This document shows, piece after piece, positions 1 through 16,564 of a DNA stretch of 24,324 nt (within the stretch, counting starts at the first letter, position 1; each line of letters starts with the position of its first letter). Made by a program: the position numbers and the translations under genes. This DNA comes from a virus: UHGV virus genome UHGV-0175638; one strand, written 5' to 3'. The notes under the pieces were generated by a model. That model was not told the DNA's origin. It did not search any database and saw only the letters and a program-made list of their open reading frames with translations.

Positions 1-66
1 CTATCGCGCGAGGAGATTTTGAGGATGGTTGAGAGGGTTGCAGGGTAGTAGATAAGTTTTAGATAA

Positions 67-92
67 CAAAAAACCCATTTATGTAAACGGGT
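67..92 (-). terminator. Putative rho-independent terminator downstream of the 110-aa gene
   Basis: Imperfect hairpin ACCCATTTA/TAAACGGGT at 73-92; on the minus strand it is followed by a T-run (plus-strand A-run 67-72). Confidence 0.3.
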
Positions 93-227
93 TAATGAAA
101 ACAATAAGTTAGAGTAAAAACAATAAGTTGGGTTGGTGGTCAGTGGTGGTTATTACGGGGTAATGCCAACCGCTGCCGCCACTTTGTCGCCATTTGGAAG
201 AACCCGGTTGTGCTGCCAATTTGCATG

Positions 228-560
228 CTAACGGATAGAACCATCAGGATATAAGTACACGCCACCCTCTAGATACATTGGCTCACCATCTTCAACTGCA
301 ATATCTTGATAAAGTTCAGCCAGTTCATTAGATTCATTTTTTACAAGATTATATGTATCAACATCATACCCAAGGATTTTTAACTCATCATCTGAGGTTG
401 CTCCTTGTTTTTGCTTAAGCGCAACAATATCAAAAATCCACTTTTTGCCATCTTTAACGTAGTACGCCCCAGAATCATAACCACGATCGTCAAGTACTTT
501 TTCAAATCCCATCGATAATGCTTTTTTGACAGTATGTTTTTTTACGGTAATGATAGCCAT
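228..560 (-). CDS. Hypothetical protein, 110 aa, AT-rich, beyond the integrase end
   Basis: Intact ORF with ATG at 560-558; AT-rich relative to the phage core; no motif I recognise. Confidence 0.5.
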   Translation of the reverse strand: MAIITVKKHTVKKALSMGFEKVLDDRGYDSGAYYVKDGKKWIFDIVALKQKQGATSDDELKILGYDVDTYNLVKNESNELAELYQDIAVEDGEPMYLEGGVYLYPDGSIR

Positions 561-668
561 GTAATCTCTTAATATATTGAATAAAAGTGAACTTATATAC
601 TGATAAAAGTTTACTCTGACGCAATTAACTCAGCTAGTGGGGGATGATGTTATTTTTGCACCAGTAGA

Positions 669-1520
669 TCACACTTCTAGCGTTGCGAGGGGGTTGAATC
701 TCAGAGCCGTCTCAAGATGATCGGGTGCTAAATGGGCATAGCGCATAGTCATTTTTATATCGTGATGTCCGAGGATTTTTTGCAAAGCAAGGATATTTCC
801 ACCCGACATCATGAAGTGCGCCGCAAACGTATGGCGCAGAACGTGTGTCAGTTGACCGCGAGGGAGCACGATAGACGTTTTTTCCATCACGGATAAAAAT
901 TGAAAATAGCAGTCTGTAAAGAAATTGAACCCATCAAGCGCCATGATCTCTTCGTAAAGCTCTTTACTGATAGGGATGCTTCTGTTTTTCTTCCCCTTCG
1001 TTCTTACAAAGGTAATTCGGTATTTGGTCACTTGCGAGCGGGTAAGATTTATTGCTTCTCGCCAGCGTGCGCCTGTGCTTAGGCATATCTTGACTACCAG
1101 TGCCAGAATTGGGTCCTGACGTTTGCAATCAGCCAGCAGTTCAACAATCTGCTCATGGGTAAGCCATGCCATCTCTTTTTCTGCGATGGTGAATTTTCGC
1201 ATGTTCTCCAGTGGGTTCGGATACGACCATTCGCCCAGGCGGGATAGTTCGCTAAAAACACTACTTAGATAGCTTTGCTCCAGGTTAATGGTGACCGGGC
1301 TTGCTCCTTTCTTCCATTTCTCGCTGAAGTAGATCTCACCTGTCAGGCGTTTATCTCGATAGTGGGCAAACATTTTAGAGGTTAGATCAGTTGCAAGGGG
1401 ATTGCCCAGAGCGTCAACCATCAACAGCAGTTTGTCATAGACATGCTGCCCAGCTGTCAGAGATTTACCATGTAGTTTGAACCATAGCTCAATCACGTCT
1501 TTCAATGTCCGACGATCCAC
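669..1520 (-). CDS. int: Tyrosine integrase, catalytic C-terminal part (P2/186 Int family); N-terminus lies in another frame
   Basis: Tyrosine-recombinase signature: ...LSTGARWREA... (catalytic Arg region), HVLRHTFAAHFMMSGG (H-x-x-R box), LQKILGHHDIKMTMRYAHL (catalytic Tyr); strong resemblance to 186/P2 integrase as I remember it. ORF begins with GTG at 1520. Confidence 0.85.
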   Translation of the reverse strand: MDRRTLKDVIELWFKLHGKSLTAGQHVYDKLLLMVDALGNPLATDLTSKMFAHYRDKRLTGEIYFSEKWKKGASPVTINLEQSYLSSVFSELSRLGEWSYPNPLENMRKFTIAEKEMAWLTHEQIVELLADCKRQDPILALVVKICLSTGARWREAINLTRSQVTKYRITFVRTKGKKNRSIPISKELYEEIMALDGFNFFTDCYFQFLSVMEKTSIVLPRGQLTHVLRHTFAAHFMMSGGNILALQKILGHHDIKMTMRYAHLAPDHLETALRFNPLATLEV

Positions 1521-1684
1521 TGATTCGCCCAGCCAGGCTTTGCTTCGGTTTCTTCCATCGTGTGACGCTCAAAAGCCAGAGCTTCGCCTTTGGTGGCGAA
1601 TTGTTTACGCACACGACGTCCACTACGTCCGGCGGGGTAACATTCGCAAAGCCATTTTCCTGTGGTGAGTTTTCGTACTGCCAT
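1502..1684 (-). pseudogene. int: Integrase N-terminal (arm-binding) segment in a different reading frame from the catalytic part; apparent frameshift near 1505-1525
   Basis: ATG at 1684-1682 preceded by GGAGGG; translation MAVRKLTTGKW...KGEALAFERHTMEETEAKPGWANQWIVGH matches the 186/P2 Int N-terminus from memory, then stops at 1502; the catalytic ORF continues in another frame. Confidence 0.6.
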
Positions 1685-1870
1685 AAAAAATGCCCTCCAG
1701 TAGAGAGCATTTTTACTGTATGTATAACCAGTGTCAATGTATGAAATCCTGCGACCATACATCTCACTGAAGCCATAATGAAGTTAGCTATTTTTTGCTA
1801 TGTGAGTATGTGACTTTTGCGGTTAGCCTGCGGCTCATTGTTATATTAGGCGCAGATATAAAAGCAAAAT

Positions 1871-2062
1871 TTATCGCGAGTTTTTAGTACAGATTTTTTT
1901 TGATTTACTAATAGTTCCATCATTGCAAACGAACTTTCCATCGGAGGTACAGTGAGAGACACCTCCCTTTTTCCCAGAACAAGGATAATTTTTAGCATAG
2001 GTAGTTAGTGGATTTAATAACAAAGAGCATGATAAAACCACAAAAAATACCTTACCAAGCAT
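1871..2062 (-). CDS. Small secreted Cys-rich, Lys-rich peptide (63 aa), immediately downstream of cI
   Basis: ATG at 2062 preceded by GGAGGA, 15 nt after the cI stop; hydrophobic N-terminus [23 protein letters not shown] (signal peptide, possible lipobox VLSC); mature part has 4 Cys; AT-rich. Confidence 0.55.
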
Positions 2063-2077
2063 AGTTTCCTCCCGGTA

Positions 2078-2647
2078 TTACCTAACGTACTTAATTGTTA
2101 AACTTATAATTTTCCCAATTATTTCAACATCTTCTATCTTGCACTCGAAGGCTCTGTTTCCACCCTCGACGAAGATTCTTCCACCGGGTAAACGAGTAAT
2201 GTCACGGATCGTTATTTCGCCATCAATACTTATTACCCATTTACCATCACGTATATCATCAAATTCCTTATCACAAATAAATTCAGAATTATTATCTGTG
2301 ATTACAAAAAGATTCTTGAATGCCGACGGTAGAAATTCTCTATCGAAAATATAAAAACCGTCTTCACACAAGGCCCCATCAGATAATACATATTTAGCAA
2401 CTTCCATAGTATTTGTATTACCTGAAGTTTGCTTTGAACCATGCCCGGTTGTGAGCCAATTAAGTGAGGTGCCTGTTTCAAGGGCGCACTGGATTACCCA
2501 TTCTGCTGGGAATGAGTCACGCATGTAGCGTGTGGCGAGTGTACTTTTAGAGATTCCTAAATGATCGCACAACGCCTGTCGAGTCTTGAATCCATAAGCT
2601 TCTACCATGCGCTCTATAGCGCCTCGTCCGCCTTTCTCCAAATTCAT
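2078..2647 (-). CDS. cI: CI-type immunity repressor (phage 186 CI-like, HTH N-terminal domain)
   Basis: About 190 aa; N-terminal region ...IERMVEAYGFKTRQALCDHLGISKSTLATRYMR...CALETGTSLNWLTTGHG resembles 186 CI from memory; ATG at 2647 preceded by GGAG (track ORF starts at GTG 2653); divergent from apl. Confidence 0.8.
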   Translation of the reverse strand: MNLEKGGRGAIERMVEAYGFKTRQALCDHLGISKSTLATRYMRDSFPAEWVIQCALETGTSLNWLTTGHGSKQTSGNTNTMEVAKYVLSDGALCEDGFYIFDREFLPSAFKNLFVITDNNSEFICDKEFDDIRDGKWVISIDGEITIRDITRLPGGRIFVEGGNRAFECKIEDVEIIGKIISLTIKYVR

Positions 2648-2671
2648 GGTCACTCCAAGTGAACTTTTATC

Positions 2672-2700
2672 TTGACGATTTCACTGTGCGATCGTATGTT
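2672..2700 (+). promoter_or_regulatory. Candidate lytic promoter pR (-35 TTGACG, 17-nt spacer, -10 TATGTT) in the cI/apl switch region
   Basis: TTGACG at 2672-2677 and TATGTT at 2695-2700 with 17-nt spacing, about 70 nt upstream of the apl ATG. Confidence 0.5.
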
Positions 2701-2772
2701 TATGGTGTTCACAAAATACAAACGATCCGTATTCGTCCTGATTAATCATCATTAAACGAGGAATGTTGCATC

Positions 2773-2994
2773 ATGAGACCTAACATTTCAATCACTCTTA
2801 CCACGCCTCATGTGACTATTGAACGCTATAGCGAGCTGACAGGGCTATCCATCGATACCATCAATGACATGTTGGCTGATGGACGCCTTATCCGTCACCG
2901 TCTGCGCAAAGATAAAAAACGCGAAAAAGTGATGATCAACATAGCAGCAATGACCGTTGATGCGCTTTCAGAATGCAATCTAAACCTTAATTAG
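2773..2994 (+). CDS. apl: Apl/Cox-like excisionase and switch repressor (73 aa)
   Basis: First gene of the rightward early operon, divergent from cI; small basic protein with a likely HTH ([21 protein letters not shown]); position identical to 186 apl. Confidence 0.7.
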
Positions 2995-3026
2995 TTCGAT
3001 TCTGAAATACATCAGAGGCATTGACC

Positions 3027-3536
3027 ATGTTTGATTACCAAGTTTCCAAACATCCACATTTTGATGAAGCCTGTCGTGCATTCGCATTGCGCCACAACCT
3101 GGTGCAACTGGCAGAACGTGCTGGCATGAATGTGCAGATTCTGCGGAACAAGTTGAACCCAGCTCAACCTCATTTATTAACCGCACCAGAAATCTGGCTG
3201 CTTACCGATCTGACTGAAGATTCAACGCTGGTAGATGGTTTTCTGGCTCAGATTCACTGCCTGCCATGCGTACCGATTAATGAGGTGGCAAAAGAGAAAC
3301 TGCCACATTACGTCATGAGTGCAACCGCAGAGATCGGGCGTGTTGCTGCAGGTGCGGTATCTGGCGATGTAAAAACCAGTGCAGGTCGTCGTGATGCTAT
3401 CAGCAGCATTAACTCTGTAACACGACTGATGGCGTTGGCTGCTGTTTCATTGCAGGCCCGTTTACAGGCTAACCCTGCGATGGCGAGTGCAGTTGATACC
3501 GTGACTGGCCTCGGTGCTTCATTCGGTTTGCTGTGA
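3027..3536 (+). CDS. cII: CII-like transcriptional activator (186 CII family)
   Basis: About 169 aa; ATG at 3027 preceded by GAGG (track ORF starts at TTG 3021); position and size match 186 cII, and the sequence resembles it from memory. Confidence 0.7.
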
Positions 3537-3543
3537 GGTGCTT

Positions 3544-3744
3544 ATGCTGACGAAAGAACCATCATTTGCATCGCTGCTGGTAAAGCAAAGCCCGGCAATG
3601 CACTACGGTCACGGCTGGATCATGGGTGAGGATGGAAAACGCTGGCATCCGTGCCGTTCACAAGATGAATTGCTGGCAGAACTATCTACGAAAAAACGGG
3701 GGAACAAATGGCTATTGAAGGCGCTGCGGCGACTGTTCCATTAA
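3544..3744 (+). CDS. Hypothetical small early protein (66 aa)
   Basis: ATG at 3544 preceded by GAGGTG; in-frame with track ORF 3514-3744. Confidence 0.45.
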   Translation: MLTKEPSFASLLVKQSPAMHYGHGWIMGEDGKRWHPCRSQDELLAELSTKKRGNKWLLKALRRLFH

Positions 3745-4049
3745 GACCCGGTGAACGCCTGAATGGACTTAATCATATTGCGGAGTTAAGGGCGAAAGTT
3801 TTTGGTTTGAATATTGAGTCAGAGCTTGAGCGGTTTATTAAAGATATGCGTGATCCACGGGATATCAATAATGAACAAAATAAACGGGCACTGGCTGCCA
3901 TATTCTTTATGGCAAAAATTCCAGCTGAACGTCATAGCATCAGCATTAATGAGCTGACCACTGACGAAAAGCGGGAGTTGATTAAAGCAATGAATCATTT
4001 TCGTGCAGTGGTGAGCTTATTTCCCAGACGGCTAACCATGCCGAATTAA
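3708..4049 (+). CDS. Hypothetical early protein (113 aa)
   Basis: ATG at 3708 preceded by GGGGGAA; overlaps the 3' end of the preceding ORF in another frame. Confidence 0.5.
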   Translation: MAIEGAAATVPLRPGERLNGLNHIAELRAKVFGLNIESELERFIKDMRDPRDINNEQNKRALAAIFFMAKIPAERHSISINELTTDEKRELIKAMNHFRAVVSLFPRRLTMPN

Positions 4050-4116
4050 CCAACTAATGAAATTAATGGCGTAAACCCGCCGGGCATCCCTTTATCTAAA
4101 TTCAGGAGAATTGCTT

Positions 4117-4350
4117 ATGCGTAATATTGAAACCCTCACGACCAAAACCGGACCGGATGATGCAGGTCTTAATCTTTTACTGACAGAGGCTCGTCTGGAA
4201 GAACGCCGGGCAAGGGCTGAAGCAATGGCTGCTCGCCTCGATAGCCTGGCGTGTCATATCACCTCCCGCCAGCTAAACCACGTCGAAGCGGCAGAACTGC
4301 TGCGTGTGACTGCTGAAGCAATCCAGAACGAAGCGCAGGAGATCCACTGA
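4117..4350 (+). CDS. Hypothetical early protein (about 77 aa)
   Basis: ATG at 4117 preceded by CAGGAG (track ORF starts at TTG 4111); stop overlaps the start of the next gene. Confidence 0.5.
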   Translation: MRNIETLTTKTGPDDAGLNLLLTEARLEERRARAEAMAARLDSLACHITSRQLNHVEAAELLRVTAEAIQNEAQEIH

Positions 4351-4577
4351 TGGCTGATGCAATGGATCTCGTACAGCAGCGCGTTGAAGAAGAACGCCAA
4401 CGCCATATCCGTGCTGCCCGTGCCAAAACGCCGGGCGTGTCCCGCGTGCTTTGCGTTGAGTGTGAAGCGCCAATTCCGCCAGCACGCCGCCGTGCCATTC
4501 CTGGAGTGCAGCTTTGCATTACCTGCCAGGAAATCGCAGAGCTGAAAGGCAAACATTACAACGGAGGTGCTGTATGA
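4350..4577 (+). CDS. TraR/DksA-family C4 zinc-finger protein (75 aa)
   Basis: CVECEAPIP...(17 aa)...CITCQ four-cysteine finger near the C-terminus, typical of phage/plasmid TraR-DksA proteins. Confidence 0.7.
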   Translation: MADAMDLVQQRVEEERQRHIRAARAKTPGVSRVLCVECEAPIPPARRRAIPGVQLCITCQEIAELKGKHYNGGAV

Positions 4578-5431
4578 GCACCATCCTGAAATGGGCGGGT
4601 AATAAAACCGCCATTATGTCCGAACTGAAAAAATACCTTCCTGCTGGCCCGCGACTGGTTGAACCTTTCGCGGGTTCTTGTGCTGTGATGATGGCGACGG
4701 ATTACCCCAGCTATCTGGTTGCGGATATTAATCCTGATTTAATCAACCTCTATAAAAAGATTGCCGCTGATTGCGAAGCGTTTATATCTCGTGCCAAAGT
4801 TTTATTTGAGGAAGTAAACAGTGAGCTGGCTTATTACAACATAAGACAGGAGTTTAATTACTCAACTGAAATTACTGATTTCATGAAGGCGATATATTTC
4901 CTGTATCTCAATCGTCACGGTTACCGTGGTTTATGTCGCTATAACAAGAGCGGGTATTTCAACATTCCCTACGGTAATTATAAAAATCCGTATTTCCCTG
5001 AAAAAGAAATTCGCGCATTTGCAGAGAAAGCCCAGCGGGCAACGTTTATCTGCGCGAGCTTTGATGAAACGCTGGCGATGCTGCAGGTGGGGGATGTGGT
5101 GTATTGCGATCCGCCGTATGACGGTACGTTTTCCGGCTATCACACTGATGGTTTCACTGAAGATGACCAGTATCACCTGGCATCCATTCTTGAACATCGG
5201 TCATCAGAAGGACATCCGGTCATTGTTTCTAACAATGACACATCCCTGATTCGTTCGCTGTATCGCAATTTTACTCACCACTATATCAAGGCAAAACGCA
5301 GCATCGGCGTGTCAGCTGGCGAGGGTAAATCTGCAACAGAAATCATTGCTGTTTCCGGGCCGAGCTGCTGGTTGGGATTTGATCCTTCGCGTGGCGTGGA
5401 TAGTTCTGCCGTGTACGGAGTGTGTGTATGA
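4574..5431 (+). CDS. dam: DNA N6-adenine methyltransferase (Dam-like, orphan)
   Basis: ATG at 4574 preceded by GGAGG; N-terminal LKWAGNK...EPFAGS (AdoMet binding) and the DPPY catalytic motif (VYCDPPYDG); no adjacent restriction endonuclease. Confidence 0.85.
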
Positions 5432-7842
5432 GTCATGACGATATGAACAATTGCAGCGGCTTTAACGAGGCCGCCGCAGCATTTTCATGGAACGGCTCGA
5501 AAAAGGCCATTAACCCTTATCTGGACCCGGCGGAAGTTGCGCCGGAGTCTGCACTTTCAAACCTGATCACTCTGTACGCTGCCGATAACGAGCAGGAGCA
5601 ACTGCGCCGCGAGGCACTGAGTGAGCAGGTCTGGGAGCGTTATTTCTTTAATGAATCCCGTGATCCTGTCCAGCGCGAAATGGAGCAGGATAAGCTCATT
5701 AGCCGGGCAAAGCTGGCGCATGAGCAGCAGCGTTTTAATCCGGACATGGTCATTCTGGCGGACGTAAACGCCCAGCCTTCCCATATCAGCAAGCCGCTGA
5801 TGCAACGTATTGAATACTTCAGCAGCCTGGGCAGGCCAAAGGCTTATTCCCGCTATTTGCGTGAGACGATTAAGCCATGTCTGGAGCGACTGGATTGTGT
5901 ACGTGACAGTCAGCTATCTGTTTCTTTCCGTTTTATGGCAAGCCATCAAGGGCTGGAGGGGCTGCTGATCCTGCCTGAAATGAGCCAGGATCAGGTGAAA
6001 CGCCTGTCCACCCTGGTAGCAGCGCATATGAGCATGTGTCTTGAGGACGCTTGTGGTGATTTGTATGCCACCGATGACGTTAAGCCAGAAGAAATCCGCA
6101 AGACATGGGAAAAGGTGGCAGCGGAAACCCTGCGTCTGGATGTTATCCCGCCTGCGTTTGAGAAACTTCGTCGGAAAAGAAACCGCCGCAAACCAGTGCC
6201 CTATGAACTCATCCCGGGTTCGCTGGCGCGTATGTTGTGTGCCGACTGGTGGTATCGGAAATTATGGAAGATGCGTTGCGAATGGCGGGAAGAGCAGTTG
6301 CGTGCTGTCTGCCTGGTCAGCAAAAAAGCATCCCCCTATGTCAGCTATGAAGCCGTGATGCATAAACGTGAGCAGCGCCGTAAGTCGCTGGAGTTTTTTC
6401 GTTCTCATGAACTGGTGAACGAAGACGGCGACACGCTGGATATGGAAGATGTGGTAAACGCCAGCAGCAGCAACCCGGCGCATCGCCGCAATGAGATGAT
6501 GGCCTGTGTTAAAGGTCTGGAGCTTATCGCGGAAATGCGCAGTGACTGTGCCGTTTTCTACACTATCACCTGTCCGTCGCGTTTCCATTCCACGCTCAAT
6601 AACGGCAGACCAAACCCGACCTGGACAAACGCGACGGTAAGACAAAGTAGCGATTATCTGGTCGGCATGTTTGCTGCATTTCGTAAGGCTATGCATAAAG
6701 CCGAGTTGCGCTGGTATGGCGTGCGGGTAGCTGAGCCGCATCATGACGGTACTGTGCACTGGCATCTCATGTGTTTCATGCGTAAAAAAGACCGCCGCGC
6801 CATCACTGCATTACTGCGTAAGTTTGCCATCCGTGAAGACCGCGAGGAGCTGGGCAATAACACGGGACCACGCTTTAAGTCTGAGCTGATAAACCCGCGC
6901 AAAGGTACGCCAACAAGCTACATCGCGAAATACATCAGTAAGAACATTGACGGGCGTGGTCTGGCTGGGGAGATCAGCAAGGAAACGGGTAAATCCCTGC
7001 GTGATAACGCTGAATACGTTAATGCCTGGGCGTCTCTGCATCGTGTTCAGCAATTCCGCTTCTTTGGCATTCCGGGGCGTCAGGCTTACCGTGAACTGCG
7101 ATTGCTGGCTGGTCAGGCGGCAAGGCAACAGGGTGACAAAAAAGCAGGTGCGCCGGTACTGGATAACCCGCGCCTTGATGCCATTCTGGCTGCTGCTGAT
7201 GCTGGTTGTTTTGCCACCTATATCATGAAGCAGGGCGGCGTACTGGTTCCCCGTAAATATCACCTCATCAGAACCGCTTATGAAATCAACGAAGAGCCAA
7301 CCGCCTATGGCGATCACGGTATTCGTATTTATGGCATCTGGTCACCCATTGCAGAGGGCAAGATCTGCACTCATGCGGTGAAGTGGAAAATGGTTCGTAA
7401 GGCCGTTGACGTTCAGGAGGCGGCAGCCGACCAGGGCGCTTGCGCCCCTTGGACTCGTGGCAATAACTGTCCCCTTGCTGAAAATTTGTACCAACAAGGG
7501 AAAGACAAATCAGCTGATGGGGATACCAGAACGGATATCACCCGTATGGATGACAAGGAGTTGCACGATTACCTGCACAGTATGAACAAAAAAGAGCGCC
7601 GGGAACTGGCTGTAAGGTTACGCCTGGTGAAACCGAAACGGCGTAGAGACTACAAACAGCGAATTACAGACCATCAACGACAGCAGCTCGTCTATGAACT
7701 GAAGTCCAGAGGATTTGATGGCAGCGAGAAAGAGGTCGATTTACTCCTTCGCGGCGGCAGCATTCCGTCAGGAGCAGGCCTGCGTATCTTCTATCGGAAC
7801 CAGCGTTTGCAGGAAGATGATAAGTGGCGGAACCTGTATTAA
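5428..7842 (+). CDS. A: Rolling-circle replication initiation protein (P2 gpA / 186 A family)
   Basis: About 804 aa; HUH-type motif [10 protein letters not shown]; start ATG 5428 overlaps the dam stop (ATGA), implying translational coupling; size and position match gene A. Confidence 0.85.
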
Positions 7843-7911
7843 TTACGCGGGTTAACAATTCGTGCTCTTAATAATACCAGGCATATCAGGCTGATGAACG
7901 TAAAAAAACGT

Positions 7912-7954
7912 TTTACATCAGTAAGATTATTATATACTGTAAATATAAACAGTG
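7912..7954 (+). promoter_or_regulatory. SOS-regulated promoter: -35 TTTACA, -10 TATACT, overlapping LexA box TACTGTAAATATAAACAGTG (7935-7954)
   Basis: Perfect CTGT-N8-ACAG with an AT-rich spacer, overlapping the -10, about 45 nt upstream of the ATG at 7996. Confidence 0.7.
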
Positions 7955-7995
7955 GTTATGCATACAGTATTGCTTGTGGTGTCATAGGAGGAAAG

Positions 7996-8184
7996 ATGCA
8001 GGACTATTTTTTGGAGTCTTTGAAGCTCCAGCGCATTGATTTTTTTCTTAAGCTTGTAGCGGCTAGTGAGTGTAGTGATGAAGAGAAGGGGCTGGCTCTG
8101 CAGTGGGTTTCTGAACTAACAGATGAACTCATGGCAAAAATCAGAACCCACGAATACAACCGCTCAATGGATGTCATCAGCTGA
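7996..8184 (+). CDS. Small SOS-controlled protein (62 aa), first gene of the tum-like module
   Basis: ATG at 7996 preceded by AGGAGG; the longer track ORF (7894-8184) would read through the LexA box and promoter, so the shorter start is preferred. Confidence 0.55.
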   Translation: MQDYFLESLKLQRIDFFLKLVAASECSDEEKGLALQWVSELTDELMAKIRTHEYNRSMDVIS

Positions 8185-8194
8185 GGTGACTTTT

Positions 8195-8428
8195 ATGCGC
8201 ATTGAAATAATGATCGATAAAGAGCAGAAGATTAGCCAGTCTACACTGGACGCCCTTGAATCCGAGCTTTACCGCAATCTGCGCCCCCTGTATCCCAAAA
8301 CGGTAATTCGTATCCGCAAAGGTAGCTCTAACGGTGTGGAACTGACCGGACTGCAACTGGACGAAGAAAGAAAACAAGTGATGAAAATTATGCAGAAGGT
8401 GTGGGAAGACGACAGCTGGCTGCATTAA
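8195..8428 (+). CDS. DinI-like protein (77 aa), likely Tum-type antirepressor component
   Basis: MRIEIMIDKEQKIS...ALESELYRNL...VWEDDSWLH parallels E. coli DinI from memory; ATG at 8195 preceded by GAGGTG; downstream of the LexA box. Confidence 0.65.
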   Translation: MRIEIMIDKEQKISQSTLDALESELYRNLRPLYPKTVIRIRKGSSNGVELTGLQLDEERKQVMKIMQKVWEDDSWLH

Positions 8429-8563
8429 GAAACGTTGCTGGCGTCTGAACTTGTTTCTGGCGTCAGCAAGGTTGAACAACGAGCCCTTGCGAGGCGTTAG
8501 CTCTGTAGTGCATGTCTATGCCGCATGAGATCGCATGATCGTTTGAGGATCGTTTTTGCTAAG

Positions 8564-8588
8564 GCCCGCCAGAACTGGCGGGCTTTTG
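8564..8588 (+). terminator. Rho-independent terminator ending the SOS/early operon
   Basis: GCCCGCCAG-AA-CTGGCGGGC hairpin followed by TTTTG. Confidence 0.7.
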
Positions 8589-8632
8589 CGTAGATCATGC
8601 AGGTGCATGAAAACCACTACATAAAGCGGGCA

Positions 8633-8651
8633 GGCGTGGCGGGGATACGAG
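8633..8651. other. Candidate cos site (cohesive-end sequence) of the P2/186 family
   Basis: GGCGTGGCGGGGATACGAG; the first 13 nt match the 186 cohesive end as I remember it (GGCGTGGCGGGGAAAGCAT). Relies on memory. Confidence 0.4.
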
Positions 8652-8769
8652 CGCGCGCCATAACCGTTAGAGATGCTGGGTACTAAAGCTATATACAGAA
8701 AAGAAGAATACAATTAAACTAGTAGAATATGAGAAAAATCAATAGTATGGTTAGCTAATTAGGGAAGTA

Positions 8770-9939
8770 GTGATGATAAGTTTAGAAAAATTTCAAATTT
8801 CCAATTTTTGGGGTTCGAAAAATATTACTTTAGATTTTCATAGTAAGTTTGTGATCCTAACAGGACACAATGGCTCAGGTAAATCTACCATCTTGGAGAT
8901 TCTACATGATTCATTTAGTCTTATGCATGACGGGGAAGTTCAAACTATTCATGAGTCTTGGGCTAGTGAGCTAAATTTTAGCGATGAAAGTTTAGCTAGG
9001 AGCTATTTTTTAGGTGACGATATTGAATTGCAGGATGCTTTAAAAAGAAGAATAGAAAACAGTGCAAAAAAAACTATTAAACTTGATATTTTTAACTCAT
9101 TTGATTTCATAAATAAAACAATAAATAATTACACAAAGAAAAAAAATAAAGATTTTTTAGTTAAGAAAGATTTCTCCTCATCATTAAAGAAAAAATCTTT
9201 TATGACTATGCAGTATCATCCAACAAAAGATGATATGAAATTTCCTAAAACTATTTTCTTTAAAGATAGCCGAGTCCTCTATAACACGGTTAGCGATGAA
9301 GTTAAAGAAGTTAACGACTTAGATATATTCAACGAAGCAGACAGCATTAACAAGACACTTTACTTACTAATGAGTTCTTTCATTATTGAGGAGTCTAAGA
9401 ATAAAAAGCTGAAGTTCAAAGATAAAAATGAATTAAAAAAGATGTTTATAAATGAATTAAAATCAGAACAAGCTTTTATGGGGGAGCTAAAAACGTCTGA
9501 TGAACAGTTAATGTCAAAGCTTGAAAGTTTGGTTGATAGAGTGTTTTTAAAAGAAATAAAAAATAATTCGTGGGGTGGGGGGCTTTTTTCAGCAATAAAT
9601 GAATTCCTAAAGAAAACAAAAAGAAGTGTGACTAGAGATGAAAAAGGTTTCATTGCTTTTAAACTTAACAATGGAAGTATTATAAAGTGGTATAATTTTT
9701 CAAGAGGTGAGAAAACTCTTCTTGTTCTTTTGTTAAGTGTTTTTTTGAATAAAGATAAAGATGTTATTTTTATTTTGGATGAACCAGATTTATCATTACA
9801 CATTGAGTGGCAGGAATTATTATTACCTAATTTGTCGCGTTTAGCTCCGGAGAGACAGTTTATATTATCTACACATTCCCCTGCTCTTGTAGGTAATATC
9901 GAAGAGCAATACTTAAATATTGCTGCTATTACGGAGTGA
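8770..9939 (+). CDS. ABC/SMC-like P-loop ATPase (389 aa), first gene of the AT-rich cargo cassette; candidate defence ATPase (AriA/OLD-ATPase-like)
   Basis: Walker A GHNGSGKST; signature-like FSRGEKTLL; Walker B VIFILDEPDLSLH; H-loop LSTHSP; long Lys/Asn-rich insert between Walker A and B; strongly AT-rich; ATG at 8773 preceded by AGGGAAG. Confidence 0.75.
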   Translation: MMISLEKFQISNFWGSKNITLDFHSKFVILTGHNGSGKSTILEILHDSFSLMHDGEVQTIHESWASELNFSDESLARSYFLGDDIELQDALKRRIENSAKKTIKLDIFNSFDFINKTINNYTKKKNKDFLVKKDFSSSLKKKSFMTMQYHPTKDDMKFPKTIFFKDSRVLYNTVSDEVKEVNDLDIFNEADSINKTLYLLMSSFIIEESKNKKLKFKDKNELKKMFINELKSEQAFMGELKTSDEQLMSKLESLVDRVFLKEIKNNSWGGGLFSAINEFLKKTKRSVTRDEKGFIAFKLNNGSIIKWYNFSRGEKTLLVLLLSVFLNKDKDVIFILDEPDLSLHIEWQELLLPNLSRLAPERQFILSTHSPALVGNIEEQYLNIAAITE

Positions 9940-9945
9940 GTTATT

Positions 9946-10983
9946 ATGGATGTTAATTCTCTCGGGTTCAAATCTCAGTCATCTTATTACAAAAAGTCAT
10001 CTATTTTTTTGGGTGAGAATCAACCAAGATGGGTTGCTGTCTGGGTCGAATCAGATGATGATAAAAAACTATGGTTTCCAGTGTTGAAGCATTCATATAA
10101 AAAAATAAACTTTAAATTTCATATTGCCTCCCTGCATAAGTTTAAAGATGGAAAGATATCTGATGGATGTTCAAGAATTTTTGCAAAAATTAAGAGCGGT
10201 GAAATTGAACTAGGAAGTTCCACAATTGCTTGCTTAGATAGCGATTACAGCTATATATCAGGTAACTATGCTTGCAAGCAAAAGGAATTATTGGAATCAC
10301 CTCATGTTTTTCAAACATATGTCCATTCTAAGGAGAATATATATGTTCACCCGATTGGAATTATTCAACTTTTTGAGCGTGCTTTAGGTGAAGACTTGGA
10401 GCAGTTAGGTATAAATGTAGAATGTTTTACTGAAAAATTATCCATCTCAATATATGAATATCTTGTAAAGTTGATATCGCTCTATCGCCTAAATGATCTA
10501 AAAGCATTCGATCTATATCATAAACAGTTCATGGATAATTTCAAAACAATTATGAATGAGATGAAATTACCAGAGGATCTCTCGTCTGATTATGAAAGCC
10601 TTTTGAAGGCGAAGCTTACTGATTTTGATACGGAACTTACACAGCATATAAAAAGCACTCATGGAATAAGTGTGATTGATGATACAAATCAAAGATTTAG
10701 AGAGATTGAAGTTAATCCGTCTGATTCATTGAACTTTATACGTGGCCATGATTTGTATCCTGTAATGATGAAAATATATAAGAGTATAGATCAGTATGTT
10801 TTCAAAGTTAAACGTGATCAATATAATCAAGAACACATATCTGATGAGATAAGGCAAAAGAAACAGAGGGAGATGGGTAATAAACGTGTGGATATTGAAG
10901 ACTTAATATGTACCCGGGGTGATGTTAAGGATAATCAATATTTCTCACGCACCATTAAGAAGCTTAATACATTGTTTGCATAG
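9946..10983 (+). CDS. Partner protein (345 aa) with Toprim-like acidic motifs (DUF4435/OLD-nuclease-like); candidate effector
   Basis: Starts 6 nt after the ATPase stop with GGAG upstream (operon); N-terminal VAVWVESDDDKK (Toprim-like E...D) and ACLDSDYSY (DxD-like); AT-rich. Fold assignment is inference from motifs only. Confidence 0.6.
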   Translation: MDVNSLGFKSQSSYYKKSSIFLGENQPRWVAVWVESDDDKKLWFPVLKHSYKKINFKFHIASLHKFKDGKISDGCSRIFAKIKSGEIELGSSTIACLDSDYSYISGNYACKQKELLESPHVFQTYVHSKENIYVHPIGIIQLFERALGEDLEQLGINVECFTEKLSISIYEYLVKLISLYRLNDLKAFDLYHKQFMDNFKTIMNEMKLPEDLSSDYESLLKAKLTDFDTELTQHIKSTHGISVIDDTNQRFREIEVNPSDSLNFIRGHDLYPVMMKIYKSIDQYVFKVKRDQYNQEHISDEIRQKKQREMGNKRVDIEDLICTRGDVKDNQYFSRTIKKLNTLFA

Positions 10984-10987
10984 GTTA

Positions 10988-11022
10988 AATGCATTGCCTG
11001 AAAATAGGCAGTGCATTTAATT
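10988..11022. terminator. Hairpin between the convergent cassette and portal gene (possible bidirectional terminator)
   Basis: AATGCATTGCCT-GAAAAT-AGGCAGTGCATT (11 of 12 bp paired) followed by TTAATT. Confidence 0.4.
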
Positions 11023-11067
11023 GGTATTGTGAATATTAACTGCACTCGTTGAATTTAATATTTATTG

Positions 11068-12096
11068 CTAGAGGTTGTATACATCAAATTTTATGATTTC
11101 TTCTCCATGCCAGTCATTTAACTCCATCATTCTTTTTTGTAGAGGAATAAGTTCATTTCTTACAAATACTTTACTAGCCTTCTCCACATCCCCAAAACCA
11201 CCAACATTACTTGGCATGATCCCCATCATCTGCGGCGGAACGCGGTGCGCTGCCATCATGTCATCCCGGCTCACGTTCTTGATGTTCAGAAACTCATCTT
11301 TTGCTGCGACTTCTGACAACGGGATGATTTGGATGCCGTCCTTCTTTCCGTTGGGGGAGTACATAAACAGGTTACGGAAGTTACCAGGACCTTTGGCGCT
11401 TTTCATCGCATTGCGGAGGTTGTTCACATCCTCCTGGTTCTGCGCTGCATCGGTCATGTACATGATGAAGCCTGCATGACTGCCGTTAATGTAATACTTG
11501 CGGCGGAACAGCGTGGCGGACTCGTTGAGCAGAGCTGACGGAATAGCAGAAAGATAACCGGGCAGGCCGTAGATCTCCTGGTTGATGTCCGGTTCCATCA
11601 GATGAAAAATGTTGCCTTTCGTGAACTGATACGGCTGCGTAGTCATGCCGTATTGCACAAACCAGTAGGTATCAAGGTCTAACCCGCGTCGGGTGTATTT
11701 TGCCAGTGCAGGCTCAAGGGCGATAACTTCACCGAAGCGGTTCGTGCGTTTCTCCAGGTAGGCGTTACCAAAAACCAGATAGTCCTGTACAAAACGCGAA
11801 AAAGCCTGCTGGCTGAGCAGCGGGTGAGGGATGTAGGTGCTGGTCAGAATGTTGCACTTCACTGCAATCGGTGAGCTGTGATGCACGGCGGCGCGGAAGG
11901 TTCGCGCCAGTCCGTCGAAACTCACAGGCGGCTCGTACCAACGATCCATCTGTACGCATTCCACATAGTCCAGCAGTTCGCGGCGGTCCAGAACAGGAAC
12001 GGGATCACCGAAGCTGAATGCTTCGGCTGAAGTCTGGCTTTTATGCTGGATCTGTTTTGTCGACGCAGCGCGGTTCTTCTTACTCTTTCCCATCAA
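11068..12096 (-). CDS. Q: Portal protein (P2 gpQ family)
   Basis: 342 aa; first late gene on the minus strand; start overlaps the terminase stop; size, position and sequence resemble P2 Q from memory. Confidence 0.85.
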   Translation of the reverse strand: MMGKSKKNRAASTKQIQHKSQTSAEAFSFGDPVPVLDRRELLDYVECVQMDRWYEPPVSFDGLARTFRAAVHHSSPIAVKCNILTSTYIPHPLLSQQAFSRFVQDYLVFGNAYLEKRTNRFGEVIALEPALAKYTRRGLDLDTYWFVQYGMTTQPYQFTKGNIFHLMEPDINQEIYGLPGYLSAIPSALLNESATLFRRKYYINGSHAGFIMYMTDAAQNQEDVNNLRNAMKSAKGPGNFRNLFMYSPNGKKDGIQIIPLSEVAAKDEFLNIKNVSRDDMMAAHRVPPQMMGIMPSNVGGFGDVEKASKVFVRNELIPLQKRMMELNDWHGEEIIKFDVYNL

Positions 12097-13859
12097 AAAA
12101 TCTCCACAATATTGCTGGTATTGGCGGACTCGCCCTGCAGCGGTTCGTTAAACAGTGCGTGCATTGTTGCCCAAGCCAGATCGGCATGGCTGGCTTCTTC
12201 GCTGCGGCTGGCTTCATAGGTCGGGCGGTTGCCACTGGCAGTGGTAGCGCGACGGATTGCCATAAATGACTGCGCAATGTCGGTGTGCCCGGCGTCAAAC
12301 TCCAGACGGCGGTAGCTGATAATGTCGTAGGCCTTGAGTACCAGGGCGTTTTTAACGTTGGGGTTATAGACAAACTCCCTGACGGCAGGAAAAAACGCTT
12401 TCACGTTCTCGTAAACCCCGTGACCGACGCCGGTCGAGTCGATACCGATATAGGTCACGTTATACTGTTCGGTCAGTTTTTTGATGGCGTCAGCCTGGGC
12501 GCGGAAGTCCATCCCGCGCCACTGGTGACGCTCAAGAATGCGGAACTTACCACCCGGCACGGCTGGCGGAGCCACCACCACGCATCCGGCACTGTCGCCG
12601 TTCTGCGTACCTTTTGCCGGGTCATAACCGATCCACACTTCGCGCCAGCCAAACGGGCGCAGGGCCAGTGCATGAAAGTCGGTCCAGACTTCCCAGCTGT
12701 CCACCATGCACGCCTGCAGTTCGCTGAGCGGGAACACGGACGCGAGATCGTCCACGAACTCGCACATCAGCAGGTTCTGGTATTCGTCCGGGCTGTACTC
12801 CATGCGCAGCTGGTCGAGGTCGAACAGGTTACAGCCGCCGCGCACCGCATCTTCCACGGTGACTATCTGGCGGTATTGCCCGTCTGCGCACAGCAGGCCG
12901 GGGGCCAGATTGCTGTGGGACAGGTCGATGTCCACCTTGTCAGCTTTGTTGCGTCCACGGTTGAACAGCGCACCGGACCAGAACGGATAAGCACTGTGGG
13001 TCAGGCTGGATGGCGTGGAAAAATAGGTCTGTCGCCATTTCTTGTGAATAGCCATACCGGAAGCCACTTTGCGCAACTCCTGGAATTTCGGTATCCAGAA
13101 ATATTCATCCAGATACAGGTTGCCGTGGTAACTCTGCGCCGTGCGGGCATTGGTGCCGAGGAAGTAAAGCGTGGCCCCGTTAGGAAGCACCATCGGATCG
13201 CCTTTCAGCTCCACCTCGACTTCTTTGGCGAAGTCGATGATGTACTGCTTAAAGACGTGAGCCTGTGCCTTACTGGCAGAAAGGAAAATCTGGTTACGTC
13301 CGGTAAGCAGGGCGTCAATCAGGGCTTCACGGGAAAAGTAAAAGGTCGCGCCGATCTGGCGTGACTTCAGCAGGTTGCGGATGCGGTTGGTTTTTCCGGC
13401 TTCCCACCAGTGGCGCTGGTAGTTGAACATGGAGGAATGGAAGATTTCTTCCAGTTTCTCTATCTGTTCATCGGTGAAAACATTCTTTTCCGGCTGACGG
13501 CGCGGGCCTTTGTTGCGGTTGGCGACGTTAGGGTTTAAGTCGGCTTCGTTGCCGCCATTGTTAAACTTGCCGATCCGCGCGTGGCGCTCAGACTGGCGCG
13601 CCAGCAGGTCAATCTCTTTGAAATCTTTCCCTTCTTTGTGCTCCTTCATGATGAGCTGGCAGTAGCGTGCGGCGGTGGTGAGCTGCATCTGATCCAGCGG
13701 CCCATAGTCACCCCACTTGTCGCGTTTTTTCCAGCTGTGAACGGTTGCAACTTTCTCGCCCAGCATTTCAGCAATGCGGGCTACGCGGTATCCCTGAAAG
13801 TACAGCAGCATGGCCTGCCGACGGGGATCGAGATCTGCGGGTGTCAGTGTGGTGTTCAT
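12093..13859 (-). CDS. P: Terminase large (ATPase) subunit (P2 gpP family)
   Basis: 588 aa; divergent from the capsid operon; size, position and sequence resemble P2 P from memory. Confidence 0.85.
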   Translation of the reverse strand: MNTTLTPADLDPRRQAMLLYFQGYRVARIAEMLGEKVATVHSWKKRDKWGDYGPLDQMQLTTAARYCQLIMKEHKEGKDFKEIDLLARQSERHARIGKFNNGGNEADLNPNVANRNKGPRRQPEKNVFTDEQIEKLEEIFHSSMFNYQRHWWEAGKTNRIRNLLKSRQIGATFYFSREALIDALLTGRNQIFLSASKAQAHVFKQYIIDFAKEVEVELKGDPMVLPNGATLYFLGTNARTAQSYHGNLYLDEYFWIPKFQELRKVASGMAIHKKWRQTYFSTPSSLTHSAYPFWSGALFNRGRNKADKVDIDLSHSNLAPGLLCADGQYRQIVTVEDAVRGGCNLFDLDQLRMEYSPDEYQNLLMCEFVDDLASVFPLSELQACMVDSWEVWTDFHALALRPFGWREVWIGYDPAKGTQNGDSAGCVVVAPPAVPGGKFRILERHQWRGMDFRAQADAIKKLTEQYNVTYIGIDSTGVGHGVYENVKAFFPAVREFVYNPNVKNALVLKAYDIISYRRLEFDAGHTDIAQSFMAIRRATTASGNRPTYEASRSEEASHADLAWATMHALFNEPLQGESANTSNIVEIF

Positions 13860-13905
13860 GGCACAAACCTACAGCCTTGAATGAAGGCTTTCCCCGCCTG
13901 CGGTT

Positions 13906-13923
13906 TGTGTGGTTGTCGGTACA
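13906..13923 (+). promoter_or_regulatory. Late-promoter activator site (TGT-N12-ACA dyad, Ogr/B-type) in the P/O divergent region
   Basis: TGTGTGGTTGTCGGTACA, centred about 87 nt upstream of the O ATG; a near-identical 18-mer occurs upstream of V. Confidence 0.55.
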
Positions 13924-14001
13924 AATACCGCGCATTGTTTCACTGCCCCCATCACCGCAACCATAAGGCTCCAGTAAGTTTTTTCTAACGGAGCACGGCT
14001 C

Positions 14002-14835
14002 ATGACAGTGAAAGCAAAGCGTTTTCGCATCGGGGTGGAAGGTGCCACTACCGACGGACGTGAAATCCAGCGTGAATGGCTGGAACAGATGGCAGCCAGC
14101 TACAACCCGGCGGTGTATACCGCGCTGATTAACCTTGAGCACATCAAGTCTTATCTGCCGGACAGCACCTTTAACCGCTACGGCAAGGTGACGGCGCTGT
14201 TTGCTGAAGAAATCACGGAAGGTCCGCTGGCAGGCAAGATGGCGCTGTATGCCGACGTTGAGCCAACGGAGTCCCTGGTGGAACTGGTGAAAAAAGGCCA
14301 GAAATTATTCACCTCTATGGAAGTCAGCCCGAAGTTCGCTGATACGGGCAAAGCCTACCTGGTCGGCCTGGCTGCCACTGATGACCCTGCCAGTCTGGGT
14401 ACGGAAATGCTGACATTCAGCGCCAGTGCAGCCCATAACCCGCTGGCAAACCGCAAGCAGAATCCCGCCAATCTTTTTACCGCTGCAGAGGAAACGGTGA
14501 TCGAACTGGAAGAAATCCAGGAGGACAAGCCGTCCCTGTTTGCCCGTGTCACGGCGCTGTTTACCAAAAAAGAGCAGTCCGATGACGCCCGGTTCTCTGA
14601 TGTGCATAAGGCCGTGGAGCTGGTCGCCACTGAGCAGCAGAACCTGAGCGCACGCACCGAAAAATCCCTGTCTGAGCAGGAAGAACGCCTGTCTGAGCTG
14701 GAGACTGCTCTGCAGGAGCAGCAAACCGCCTTTAACGAACTGGTGAATAAGCTGAGTCATGAAGACAGCCGCCAGGACTACCGCCAGCGTGCAACAGGCG
14801 GTAACGCCCCCGCTGACACTCTGACCAATTGCTGA
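14002..14835 (+). CDS. O: Capsid scaffolding protein (P2 gpO family)
   Basis: 277 aa; ATG at 14002 preceded by GGAG; acidic, coiled-coil-rich C-terminal half; first gene of the rightward capsid operon. Confidence 0.8.
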   Translation: MTVKAKRFRIGVEGATTDGREIQREWLEQMAASYNPAVYTALINLEHIKSYLPDSTFNRYGKVTALFAEEITEGPLAGKMALYADVEPTESLVELVKKGQKLFTSMEVSPKFADTGKAYLVGLAATDDPASLGTEMLTFSASAAHNPLANRKQNPANLFTAAEETVIELEEIQEDKPSLFARVTALFTKKEQSDDARFSDVHKAVELVATEQQNLSARTEKSLSEQEERLSELETALQEQQTAFNELVNKLSHEDSRQDYRQRATGGNAPADTLTNC

Positions 14836-14851
14836 TGGAGCACAAAACCTG

Positions 14852-15910
14852 ATGAAGAAGAATACCCGCTTTGCTTTTAACGCTTACCTGCAGCAACTGG
14901 CACGTCTGAACGGTGTGGCAGTTGAAGAACTGTCCAGCAAATTCACCGTAGAGCCGTCTGTACAGCAGACTCTGGAAGACCAGATCCAGCAGTCCGCCGC
15001 TTTCCTGACGCTGATTAACGTCACGCCAGTGACTGAGCAATCCGGTCAACTGCTGGGGTTGGGTGTTGGCAGCACCATTGCCGGAACCACTGATACCACC
15101 GCGAAAGAGCGTGAGCCTGTCGATCCGACGCTGATGGTCGATGTGGAATATAAATGCGAGCAGACCAACTTTGACACGGTGCTGACCTACGCGAAGCTGG
15201 ACCTGTGGGCGAAGTTTCAGGATTTCCAGGTGCGTATCCGTGACGCCATCGTGAAACGTCAGGCACTGGACCGCATCATGATCGGCTTTAACGGCGTGAA
15301 GCGTGCGAAAACCTCCAACCGTAGCGAAAACCCGCTGCTGCAGGATGTGAATAAAGGCTGGCTGCAGAAAATCCGTGAGGATGCACCGGATCACGTCATG
15401 GGCAGCACCACCACGGGCGGTGAAACCACACCGGGCGCGGTGAAAGTCGGGAAAGGGGGCGAATATGCCAACCTGGACGCCGTGGTGATGGATGCCGTTA
15501 ACGAGCTTATCGATGTGGTCTACCAGGACGATGACGATCTGGTGGTGATTTGCGGTCGTGAACTGCTGTCTGACAAGTATTTCCCGCTGGTCAACAAAGA
15601 GCAGGAAAACAGTGAAAAACTGGCTGCCGATATGATCATCAGCCAGAAACGCATGGGTGGCCTGCAGGCCGTGCGTGCGCCGTTCTTCCCGCCGAATGCG
15701 CTGCTGATCACCCGTCTGGATAACCTGTCCATCTACTGGCAGGAAGACACCCGCCGCCGTTCAGTTATCGACAACCCGAAACGTGACCGGATTGAAAACT
15801 TTGAATCCGTTAACGAAGCCTATGTGGTTGAGGACTACCGCTGCGCCGCACTGGTGGAAAACATCCAGATTGGCGATTTCAGCGCCGCTGCAGCAGAAGC
15901 CGGAGCGTAA
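14852..15910 (+). CDS. N: Major capsid protein (P2 gpN family)
   Basis: 352 aa, directly after the scaffold gene; resembles P2 N from memory. Confidence 0.85.
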   Translation: MKKNTRFAFNAYLQQLARLNGVAVEELSSKFTVEPSVQQTLEDQIQQSAAFLTLINVTPVTEQSGQLLGLGVGSTIAGTTDTTAKEREPVDPTLMVDVEYKCEQTNFDTVLTYAKLDLWAKFQDFQVRIRDAIVKRQALDRIMIGFNGVKRAKTSNRSENPLLQDVNKGWLQKIREDAPDHVMGSTTTGGETTPGAVKVGKGGEYANLDAVVMDAVNELIDVVYQDDDDLVVICGRELLSDKYFPLVNKEQENSEKLAADMIISQKRMGGLQAVRAPFFPPNALLITRLDNLSIYWQEDTRRRSVIDNPKRDRIENFESVNEAYVVEDYRCAALVENIQIGDFSAAAAEAGA

Positions 15911-15913
15911 CCC

Positions 15914-16564
15914 ATGAGCCTGAGTCCCGCACGGCAGCATCGCCTGCGCGTTCAGGCTGAACAGGCCGCCCGCGAGGGCGGCAGCGTTCGCCACGCGTCG
16001 GGCTATGACCTGATGCTGCTGCAACTGGCGGAAGACCGCCGCCGTCTCAAGGGCGTTCAGTCCACGGTGAAAAAAGCGGAAATCAAGGTGGAGCTGCTGC
16101 CGAAATATGCCGCCTGGGCGGAGGGCGTCCTGGCTGCCGGAGGCGCTCAACAGGATGACGTGCTGATGTACGTGATGCTGTGGCGCATTGATGCCGGAGA
16201 TTATGCCGGGGCGCTGGAGATCGGGCGTCATGCCCTGCGTCATGGCTGGGTGATGCCGCTGGGTAACCGCAACGTGCAGACCGTGCTGGCAGAGGAAATG
16301 GCAGATGCAGCGCAGAGCGCAATGCTTGCCGCCACCGGCTTTGATGCCGATCTGTTGCTGCAGACGCTGGAGCTGACAGACGGTCTGGATATGCCGGACC
16401 AGTCACGGGCGCGTCTGCATAAAGCGATTGGCGCTGTCCTGAGTGAAAGCAATCCGGCTTCCGCCCTTAATCATCTCAACCATGCGTTACAGCTCGATCC
16501 CCGCTGTGGCGTGAAAAAAGACAAACAGCAGCTGGAGCGCAGACTGCGCAATGACAGCCGCTGA
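15914..16564 (+). CDS. M: Terminase small/endonuclease subunit (P2 gpM family)
   Basis: 216 aa; position after N; resembles P2 M from memory. Confidence 0.8.
   Translation: MSLSPARQHRLRVQAEQAAREGGSVRHASGYDLMLLQLAEDRRRLKGVQSTVKKAEIKVELLPKYAAWAEGVLAAGGAQQDDVLMYVMLWRIDAGDYAGALEIGRHALRHGWVMPLGNRNVQTVLAEEMADAAQSAMLAATGFDADLLLQTLELTDGLDMPDQSRARLHKAIGAVLSESNPASALNHLNHALQLDPRCGVKKDKQQLERRLRNDSR

Follow-up and report, generated by a model that had tools for sequence, protein, structure and literature searches.

A missing base splits the integrase gene of a 186-type Escherichia coli prophage into two reading frames

[quoted passage not shown] The arm consensus is tgccGCCActt for the 186 type and tgTGGaCa for P2; the latter, as well as the P2 C/Cox switch, is unlike the element described here (PMC3448106). 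The phage 186 record annotates the arm repeat as YAYCGCCAYTY, and the 186 Int (NP_052278.1) is encoded by one continuous ORF, with no gene between cI and int. In the distantly related lambda Int, bridging of arm and core sites requires that the domains are covalently linked: the C65 fragment, which lacks the N-terminal domain, binds and cleaves core sites and does not carry out arm-dependent attP × attB or attL × attR recombination.

Here, we analyzed a stretch of 24,324 nucleotides (the window; UHGV virus genome UHGV-0175638), which contains a P2-like prophage of the 186 type with its E. coli integration site beside rcdA. The host/prophage junction is at about position 78, as genomes without the prophage match window positions 1–78 only. 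The features of the int region are the following.

72–93, minus strand: terminator-like hairpin at the host/prophage junction
174–221, plus strand: three 186-type arm-site repeats (TGCCGCCACTT; TGTCGCCATTT; TGCTGCCAATT)
669–1520, minus strand: 3' fragment of int with the core-binding and catalytic domains
1502–1684, minus strand: 5' fragment of int with 50 native codons, 10 out-of-frame codons and TGA
1536–1537, minus strand: lesion site, CC instead of the CCC of intact alleles (minus-strand context GCAAAG-CC-TGG)
1693–1698, minus strand: Shine-Dalgarno-like GGAGGG, as read from the sequence, with an 8-nt spacer to ATG 1684
2078–2653, minus strand: gene for a CI repressor of the 186 type, first in the leftward operon to which int belongs
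2773–2994, plus strand: intact Cox/Apl-like excisionase-repressor gene (phrog_575, E = 6.1e-31)

The gene order is as in 186, with the CI, Cox/Apl-like and CII genes in a divergent arrangement beside int. Near-identical records name the product of the CI gene phage repressor protein CI, and according to RefSeq and the gene caller it starts with the ATG at 2647 (189 aa); an identical sibling contig has Pfam matches to Phage_CI_repr and Phage_CI_C, and to Phage_CP76 (CII). The ORF at 2773–2994 occupies the position of 186 apl, the partner needed for excision. The arm repeats are situated at 174–184, 185–195 and 211–221, approximately 100–140 nt inside the junction, and consist of one exact match and two matches with two mismatches within 48 nt. 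The window holds only the int-proximal arm, and across its whole length the enrichment of such matches is only mild (17 versus 8.5 expected). The repeats at 174–221 are presumed to be the DNA targets of the integrase N-terminal domain. The window has in common with 186 the three-part layout of Int, the arm-repeat consensus and the CI, Cox/Apl-like and CII context, but its int is split, and a YdcA-family ORF (1871–2062, minus strand) lies between cI and int. This ORF encodes 63 aa with a hydrophobic N-terminus and matches phrog_6000 (E = 4.6e-34) and, on the sibling contig, PF27300.

The first of the two int ORFs runs on the minus strand from ATG 1684–1682 to TGA 1504–1502 and encodes 60 aa, whereas the second frame runs on the same strand from GTG 1520 to the stop codon at 671–669 and encodes 283 aa. 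An alternative restart at TTG 1505–1503, which overlaps the upstream stop as TTGA and was chosen as the start in the gene calls for the sibling contigs, results in a product of 278 aa. A convincing Shine-Dalgarno sequence is absent at both TTG 1505 and GTG 1520. These bounds coincide with those in a preliminary description of the sequence, which had reported an integrase split across two frames and a good ribosome-binding site at ATG 1684, corresponding to the GGAGGG with its 8-nt spacer. The same description had placed the frameshift near 1505–1525, and in this respect it has to be corrected: this region is merely the zone where the ORFs overlap, and the lesion is 11–30 nt upstream of it, at 1536–1537.

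The position of the lesion followed from an alignment with intact relatives. Window positions 600–1800 were 99.9% identical to the int region of the E. coli B prophage (REL606, BL21 and derivatives) and of other strains, and the matches in these strains were one base longer. In a global alignment of 1.2 kb, the sole difference to REL606 was GCAAAGCCCTGG in the reference versus GCAAAGCCTGG in the window, i.e., CCC was shortened to CC. This corresponds to a 1-nt deletion at codon 50/51 (Lys49 AAG is at 1540–1538 and codon 50 CCT at 1537–1535), and a −1 shift of reading is needed for repair of the frame. After its 50 native residues, the 60-aa product continues with the out-of-frame tail GWANQWIVGH. 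When one C was added in silico, we obtained a 338-aa protein identical to WP_000290930.1, and therefore the two ORFs are not a chance pair. Indeed, in RefSeq the int of REL606, of a record labelled strain C and of cM2a is a single CDS for the 338-aa WP_000290930.1 (1017 nt in REL606 and in the record labelled strain C). In other words, the integrase gene of E. coli B (REL606, BL21) and cM2a and its flanks are identical to the window but for one base; with one C fewer, the 338 aa are split into 60 + 283. The E. coli B/cM2a prophage is also found at the same rcdA-adjacent site and has the same order of CI, YdcA-family ORF, int and 110-aa ORF. The last of these (228–560, minus strand), between int and the attachment junction at the position of 186 Orf69, corresponds to the hypothetical protein WP_000974872.1 in REL606 and cM2a, and no family was found for it in Pfam-like, PHROG or PADLOC searches.

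The window integrase shares 56% identity with 186 Int over the full length and 35% with P2 Int (NP_046786.1), in agreement with its earlier assignment to the P2/186 family. The alignment with both proteins is continuous from residue 1 across the junction, where a Trp is conserved in 186 and P2 Int, with D-R/K-R a few residues downstream. Since both proteins read straight across the junction, it is the upstream ORF that encodes the genuine N-terminal domain. The downstream ORF matched Pfam Int_N (PF24624, E = 1.5e-32, residues 2–110), the core-binding domain before the catalytic domain, and Phage_integrase (PF00589, E = 3.7e-22), and the catalytic domain of HP1 integrase (1aih) matched the 3' fragment with E = 9.6e-58. 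The motifs TGARW, THVLRHTFA, LGH and RYAH are shared with 186, and the catalytic-domain motifs are common to P2 Int as well, with one or two substitutions. The preliminary description had regarded the catalytic part as otherwise intact, and the downstream part does match the intact allele exactly.

Among the PHROGs, the 60-aa product matched N-termini of integrases (phrog_11531, E = 2.5e-21; phrog_22824, E = 4.5e-24), although a Pfam search with this fragment returned no family even at E = 10. The second of these groups contains proteins of ~57 aa with unknown function, which match residues 1–50 of the 60-aa product. A single-sequence AlphaFold (AF2) model of the product consists of three strands and a helix in residues 1–48 (pLDDT ~76–87), followed by disordered residues 49–60. 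No significant match was found in a fold search with this product; the top match, with TM 0.57 and E = 0.5, was to the GCC-box domain of AtERF1, and the N-domain of Tn916 Int appeared only at rank 44. The PDB integrase chain 5c6k (292 aa) aligns to residues 49–333, i.e., it starts where the window gene breaks; this entry and 5dor are titled only 'Integrase', and we take them to be P2 integrase. The end of the helix at residue 48 in the model and the start of 5c6k at residue 49 indicate that the frameshift cuts the linker after the N-terminal module. The role predicted for the 5' fragment, arm-type DNA binding, is the one assigned to the N-terminal domain of P2-like integrases (PMC3448106).

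If integrases of this lineage normally started at the GTG, the upstream ORF would be an unrelated small gene and the window would have no lesion, as had been considered in the preliminary description. This is almost certainly wrong: 186 Int, P2 Int and hundreds of E. coli prophage integrases are continuous from the ATG through the junction, RefSeq has a single CDS of 338 aa, the 60-aa fragment matches integrase N-termini, and the comparisons with 186, P2 and RefSeq integrases gave no evidence for a start at the GTG. Integrases of the P2/186/HP1 group have the three domains in one polypeptide, and in the window this polypeptide is split at codon 50/51. As sequenced, the window int is a pseudogene of this group and not a working member. 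Provisionally, until the reads confirm the lesion, the two ORFs are best annotated together as a single int pseudogene with a frameshift.

Among 5,426 complete E. coli genomes, 733 had the CCC junction and none had the CC junction. The junction queries had 37 nt (CC) and 38 nt (CCC), and each 28-mer seed spanned the junction; a longer 80-nt query was unable to tell divergent CC from CCC alleles. Exact-pattern scans of JGI metagenome contigs and GTDB species representatives did not detect the CC junction, with CCC controls of only 9 and 0 matches, respectively, so that both collections tell little about its frequency. In a collection of ~15 billion proteins, the 60-aa product was present on 4–6 contigs, and 3 contigs had the downstream product of 278 aa, compared to at least 1000 contigs with the intact integrase.

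Three contigs carry the CC allele in the haplotype of the window. The first one is the metagenome scaffold DHAK19-1_SAMN07449018_METAG-scaffold_109 (ERZ28589717; 24,324 bp), to which the window corresponds. At position 7581 in the replication gene A, the stored ENA scaffold has C, whereas the window, the 56-kb sibling and cM2a have A; there may be two nearly identical deposits. The second one is this 56-kb sibling, a k141 contig (ERZ27227211) with 100% identity to the window across 11.7 kb, and the third one is a Logan contig from SRR5899002 that differs from the window by a patch of 5 SNPs at 3585–3636. The identical CC allele thus came from three assemblers (scaffold_109, k141 and Logan), although the contigs may share one sample. 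They are not mutually identical, being a SNP or the 5-SNP patch apart.

Two further contigs were retrieved by a query with the exact product, and we gave them little weight. One of them (L006; Logan SRR12247552, positions 1–2593) has the change from CCC to CC in a different integrase haplotype of a related 186-type prophage, in which GmrSD and HEPN genes are situated between cI and int. Compared to ten complete genomes in which this gene context is intact, e.g., CP025859, it has three further homopolymer deletions in its 2.6 kb (G6 to 5, T7 to 6 and A7 to 6), by which the GmrSD gene is fragmented, and the underlying reads were probably prone to indels. The other one (L007) has 3.9x coverage, an extra stop codon and substitutions that for the most part exchange complementary bases (A/T and C/G). 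The idea that these two contigs represent an old, spreading and decaying allele was rejected because of the other homopolymer deletions in the former and the low coverage and complement-type substitutions in the latter.

The preliminary description had left two explanations for the split, an inactivating mutation or a sequencing or assembly indel. Both remain, and the evidence favors the mutation without proving it. If the indel were an artefact, the strain would really have CCC, with one C lost through low coverage or a context-specific miscall. The window is indeed a metagenome assembly scaffold, and the distribution of the two junctions among finished genomes is in line with an error. Furthermore, the identical deletion recurs in another haplotype on the indel-prone SRR12247552 contig, and recurrence across backgrounds is typical of systematic error. 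Finally, there is a Dcm site (CCWGG) overlapping the intact CCCTGG, and on some platforms such sites give rise to systematic errors.

The quality of the window sequence argues against this explanation. Compared to REL606, the missing C was the only indel in 4.8 kb, and compared to cM2a, whose integrase is intact, window positions 1–16460 differed only by 2 SNPs and the missing C. The alignment with strain A16 (window positions 3708–24285; 20,578 nt) had 99.05% identity with 196 mismatches and 0 gaps, and all 28 of the 28 other prophage genes that were checked against A16 were of full length, with no internal stops. The window contains 141 homopolymer runs of at least 5 nt (52 of at least 6 nt), and none of them differs in length from those of the relatives; the lesion run is one of 880 three-base runs. 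With no other indels and with unchanged homopolymers, the data are not indel-prone. An indel-prone platform would have hit the long homopolymers first, and no other indel was present across ~24 kb. Besides, three assemblers agree on CC in contigs that are not identical, and a coincidental error is expected when billions of genes are queried with an exact product, as was done for the two further contigs. An error at the Dcm site may explain the SRR12247552 contig, but we rejected it as the cause in the window, where the errors in long homopolymers that would accompany it are lacking. Altogether, we consider an artefact rather unlikely. From the sequence comparisons, the deletion appears to lie in the DNA and not solely in the reads.

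The surroundings of the prophage bear on the timing of the deletion. In its chromosomal flank, the 56-kb contig is ~0.7% different from cM2a, while the prophages are nearly identical. Near-identical prophages in differing backgrounds imply a recent spread by a working integrase, and the deletion consequently postdates integration. The missing C is probably a genuine and very recent loss-of-function deletion in the sampled strain, which arose after integration.

We also considered whether the split gene could be functional, either by a −1 slip at A_AAG (codon 49) or by cooperation of the two fragments. A_AAG is a shifty tetramer in E. coli, and a −1 slip at codon 49 would give back a product of 338 aa, in which P50A is the sole change from the wild type; low-level full-length Int would then be made together with a 60-aa arm-binding peptide acting as a regulator, similar to OrfA and OrfAB of IS3. 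The TTGA overlap could allow a coupled restart, and the existence of a PHROG of ~57-aa proteins that match integrase N-termini may point in the same direction. However, the overlap contains no X_XXY_YYZ heptamer, and only the tetramer A_AAG is present, at codon 49. The minimum free energy of positions 1560–1460 (101 nt) was −20.5 kcal/mol, compared to a mean of −20.9 for shuffled sequences (z = 0.12). The two-frame layout is not conserved either, being present in 0 of the 5,426 genomes versus 733 with the gene in frame, and int of 186 and P2 is in frame as well. The nearest relative, cM2a, has no other indel in 16.5 kb. Cooperation of the fragments is difficult to reconcile with the covalent linkage needed for arm–core bridging, as is generally known from lambda Int. 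Programmed frameshifting was rejected, as neither conservation nor a stimulatory structure was found, and a functional split or recoded int is very unlikely on the whole. It is likewise most improbable that the cell tolerates or uses the split, with the peptide occupying arm sites in attL/attR and in incoming phages that share this arm specificity, and with slippage or restart giving traces of integrase. If it were used, the prophage would be stabilised or the integration of rivals blocked, and int would be an IS3-like two-product gene of a tyrosine integrase.

If the missing C is a genuine deletion, as we favor, translation from the normal ATG would yield the N-terminal domain with a 10-residue junk tail, and the body of the enzyme would be made only via a weak restart at TTG 1505 or GTG 1520. 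The resulting product of 278–283 aa, if made, would be expected to behave like lambda Int C65, although lambda Int is only distantly related and the window fragment results from a frameshift with weak start signals. As a heterobivalent enzyme, the integrase would have to hold arm and core sites in the attL/attR complex with Apl and IHF. Since one polypeptide must bridge these sites, excision should be abolished by the split or fall to a much lower level, and by analogy with lambda the prophage would have lost the ability to excise; low-level frame restoration or restart may leave some excision. A prophage locked in this way would keep its immunity, its PARIS genes and all other genes checked, with expression of the cargo continuing, and induction would be abortive for phage production.

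The PARIS defence system consists of AriA (8773–9939) and AriB (DUF4435; 9946–10983) on the plus strand, with PADLOC E-values of 8.9e-36 and 8.5e-19, respectively. It is situated between the DinI-like and portal genes, at the position of old/tin in the P2 record, and its proteins are identical to those of strain A16.

A near-identical prophage is that of cM2a (NZ_CM176588.1, 20001–37400), an isolate from a human in Malawi with an intact int. PARIS occupies the variable hotspot in window and cM2a alike. However, the cM2a prophage has an internal deletion in which lysis and most tail genes are gone, whereas the window keeps them; this deletion joins gpM to the C-terminal part of a tail gene next to ogr. 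So, of two near-identical prophages, each has been disabled by a lesion of its own. Truncated integrases also occur in Shigella boydii and S. dysenteriae, where a 207-aa form in the same 90%-identity cluster was found on 155 contigs. These proteins are integrases of P2-like prophages too, but they have other truncation points and are fixed in sequenced isolates. Their presence on 155 contigs indicates that integrase decay is commonplace in the WP_000290930.1 family. Truncated copies or free-standing N-terminal parts from this family are widespread among annotated proteins, phrog_22824 being another example.

Accordingly, the finding as such is ordinary: both the integrase and the type of prophage are known, the copy in the window is frameshifted, and since integrase pseudogenes are common in P2-like prophages, it is a useful example but no new principle. 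Provided that the deletion is real, the window shows prophage domestication at its first step, with an otherwise complete phage, 2 SNPs from a copy with a working int, immobilised by one base. The element should not be scored as excision-competent without a check of the reads.

Two further observations concern the same prophage. A promoter-like site (1709–1737, minus strand; TTGACA, 17 nt, AAAAAT) lies ~25 nt upstream of the int start, and from its sequence it may permit transcription of int apart from the cI operon; in a promoter scan, the window overall was not enriched over shuffles. A 288-aa ORF (19836–20702, minus strand) is situated between the tail-completion genes and the baseplate gene V, at the position of P2 orf30. 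It matches phrog_4373 (E = 4e-142), a family of unknown function, and is probably a further cargo gene.
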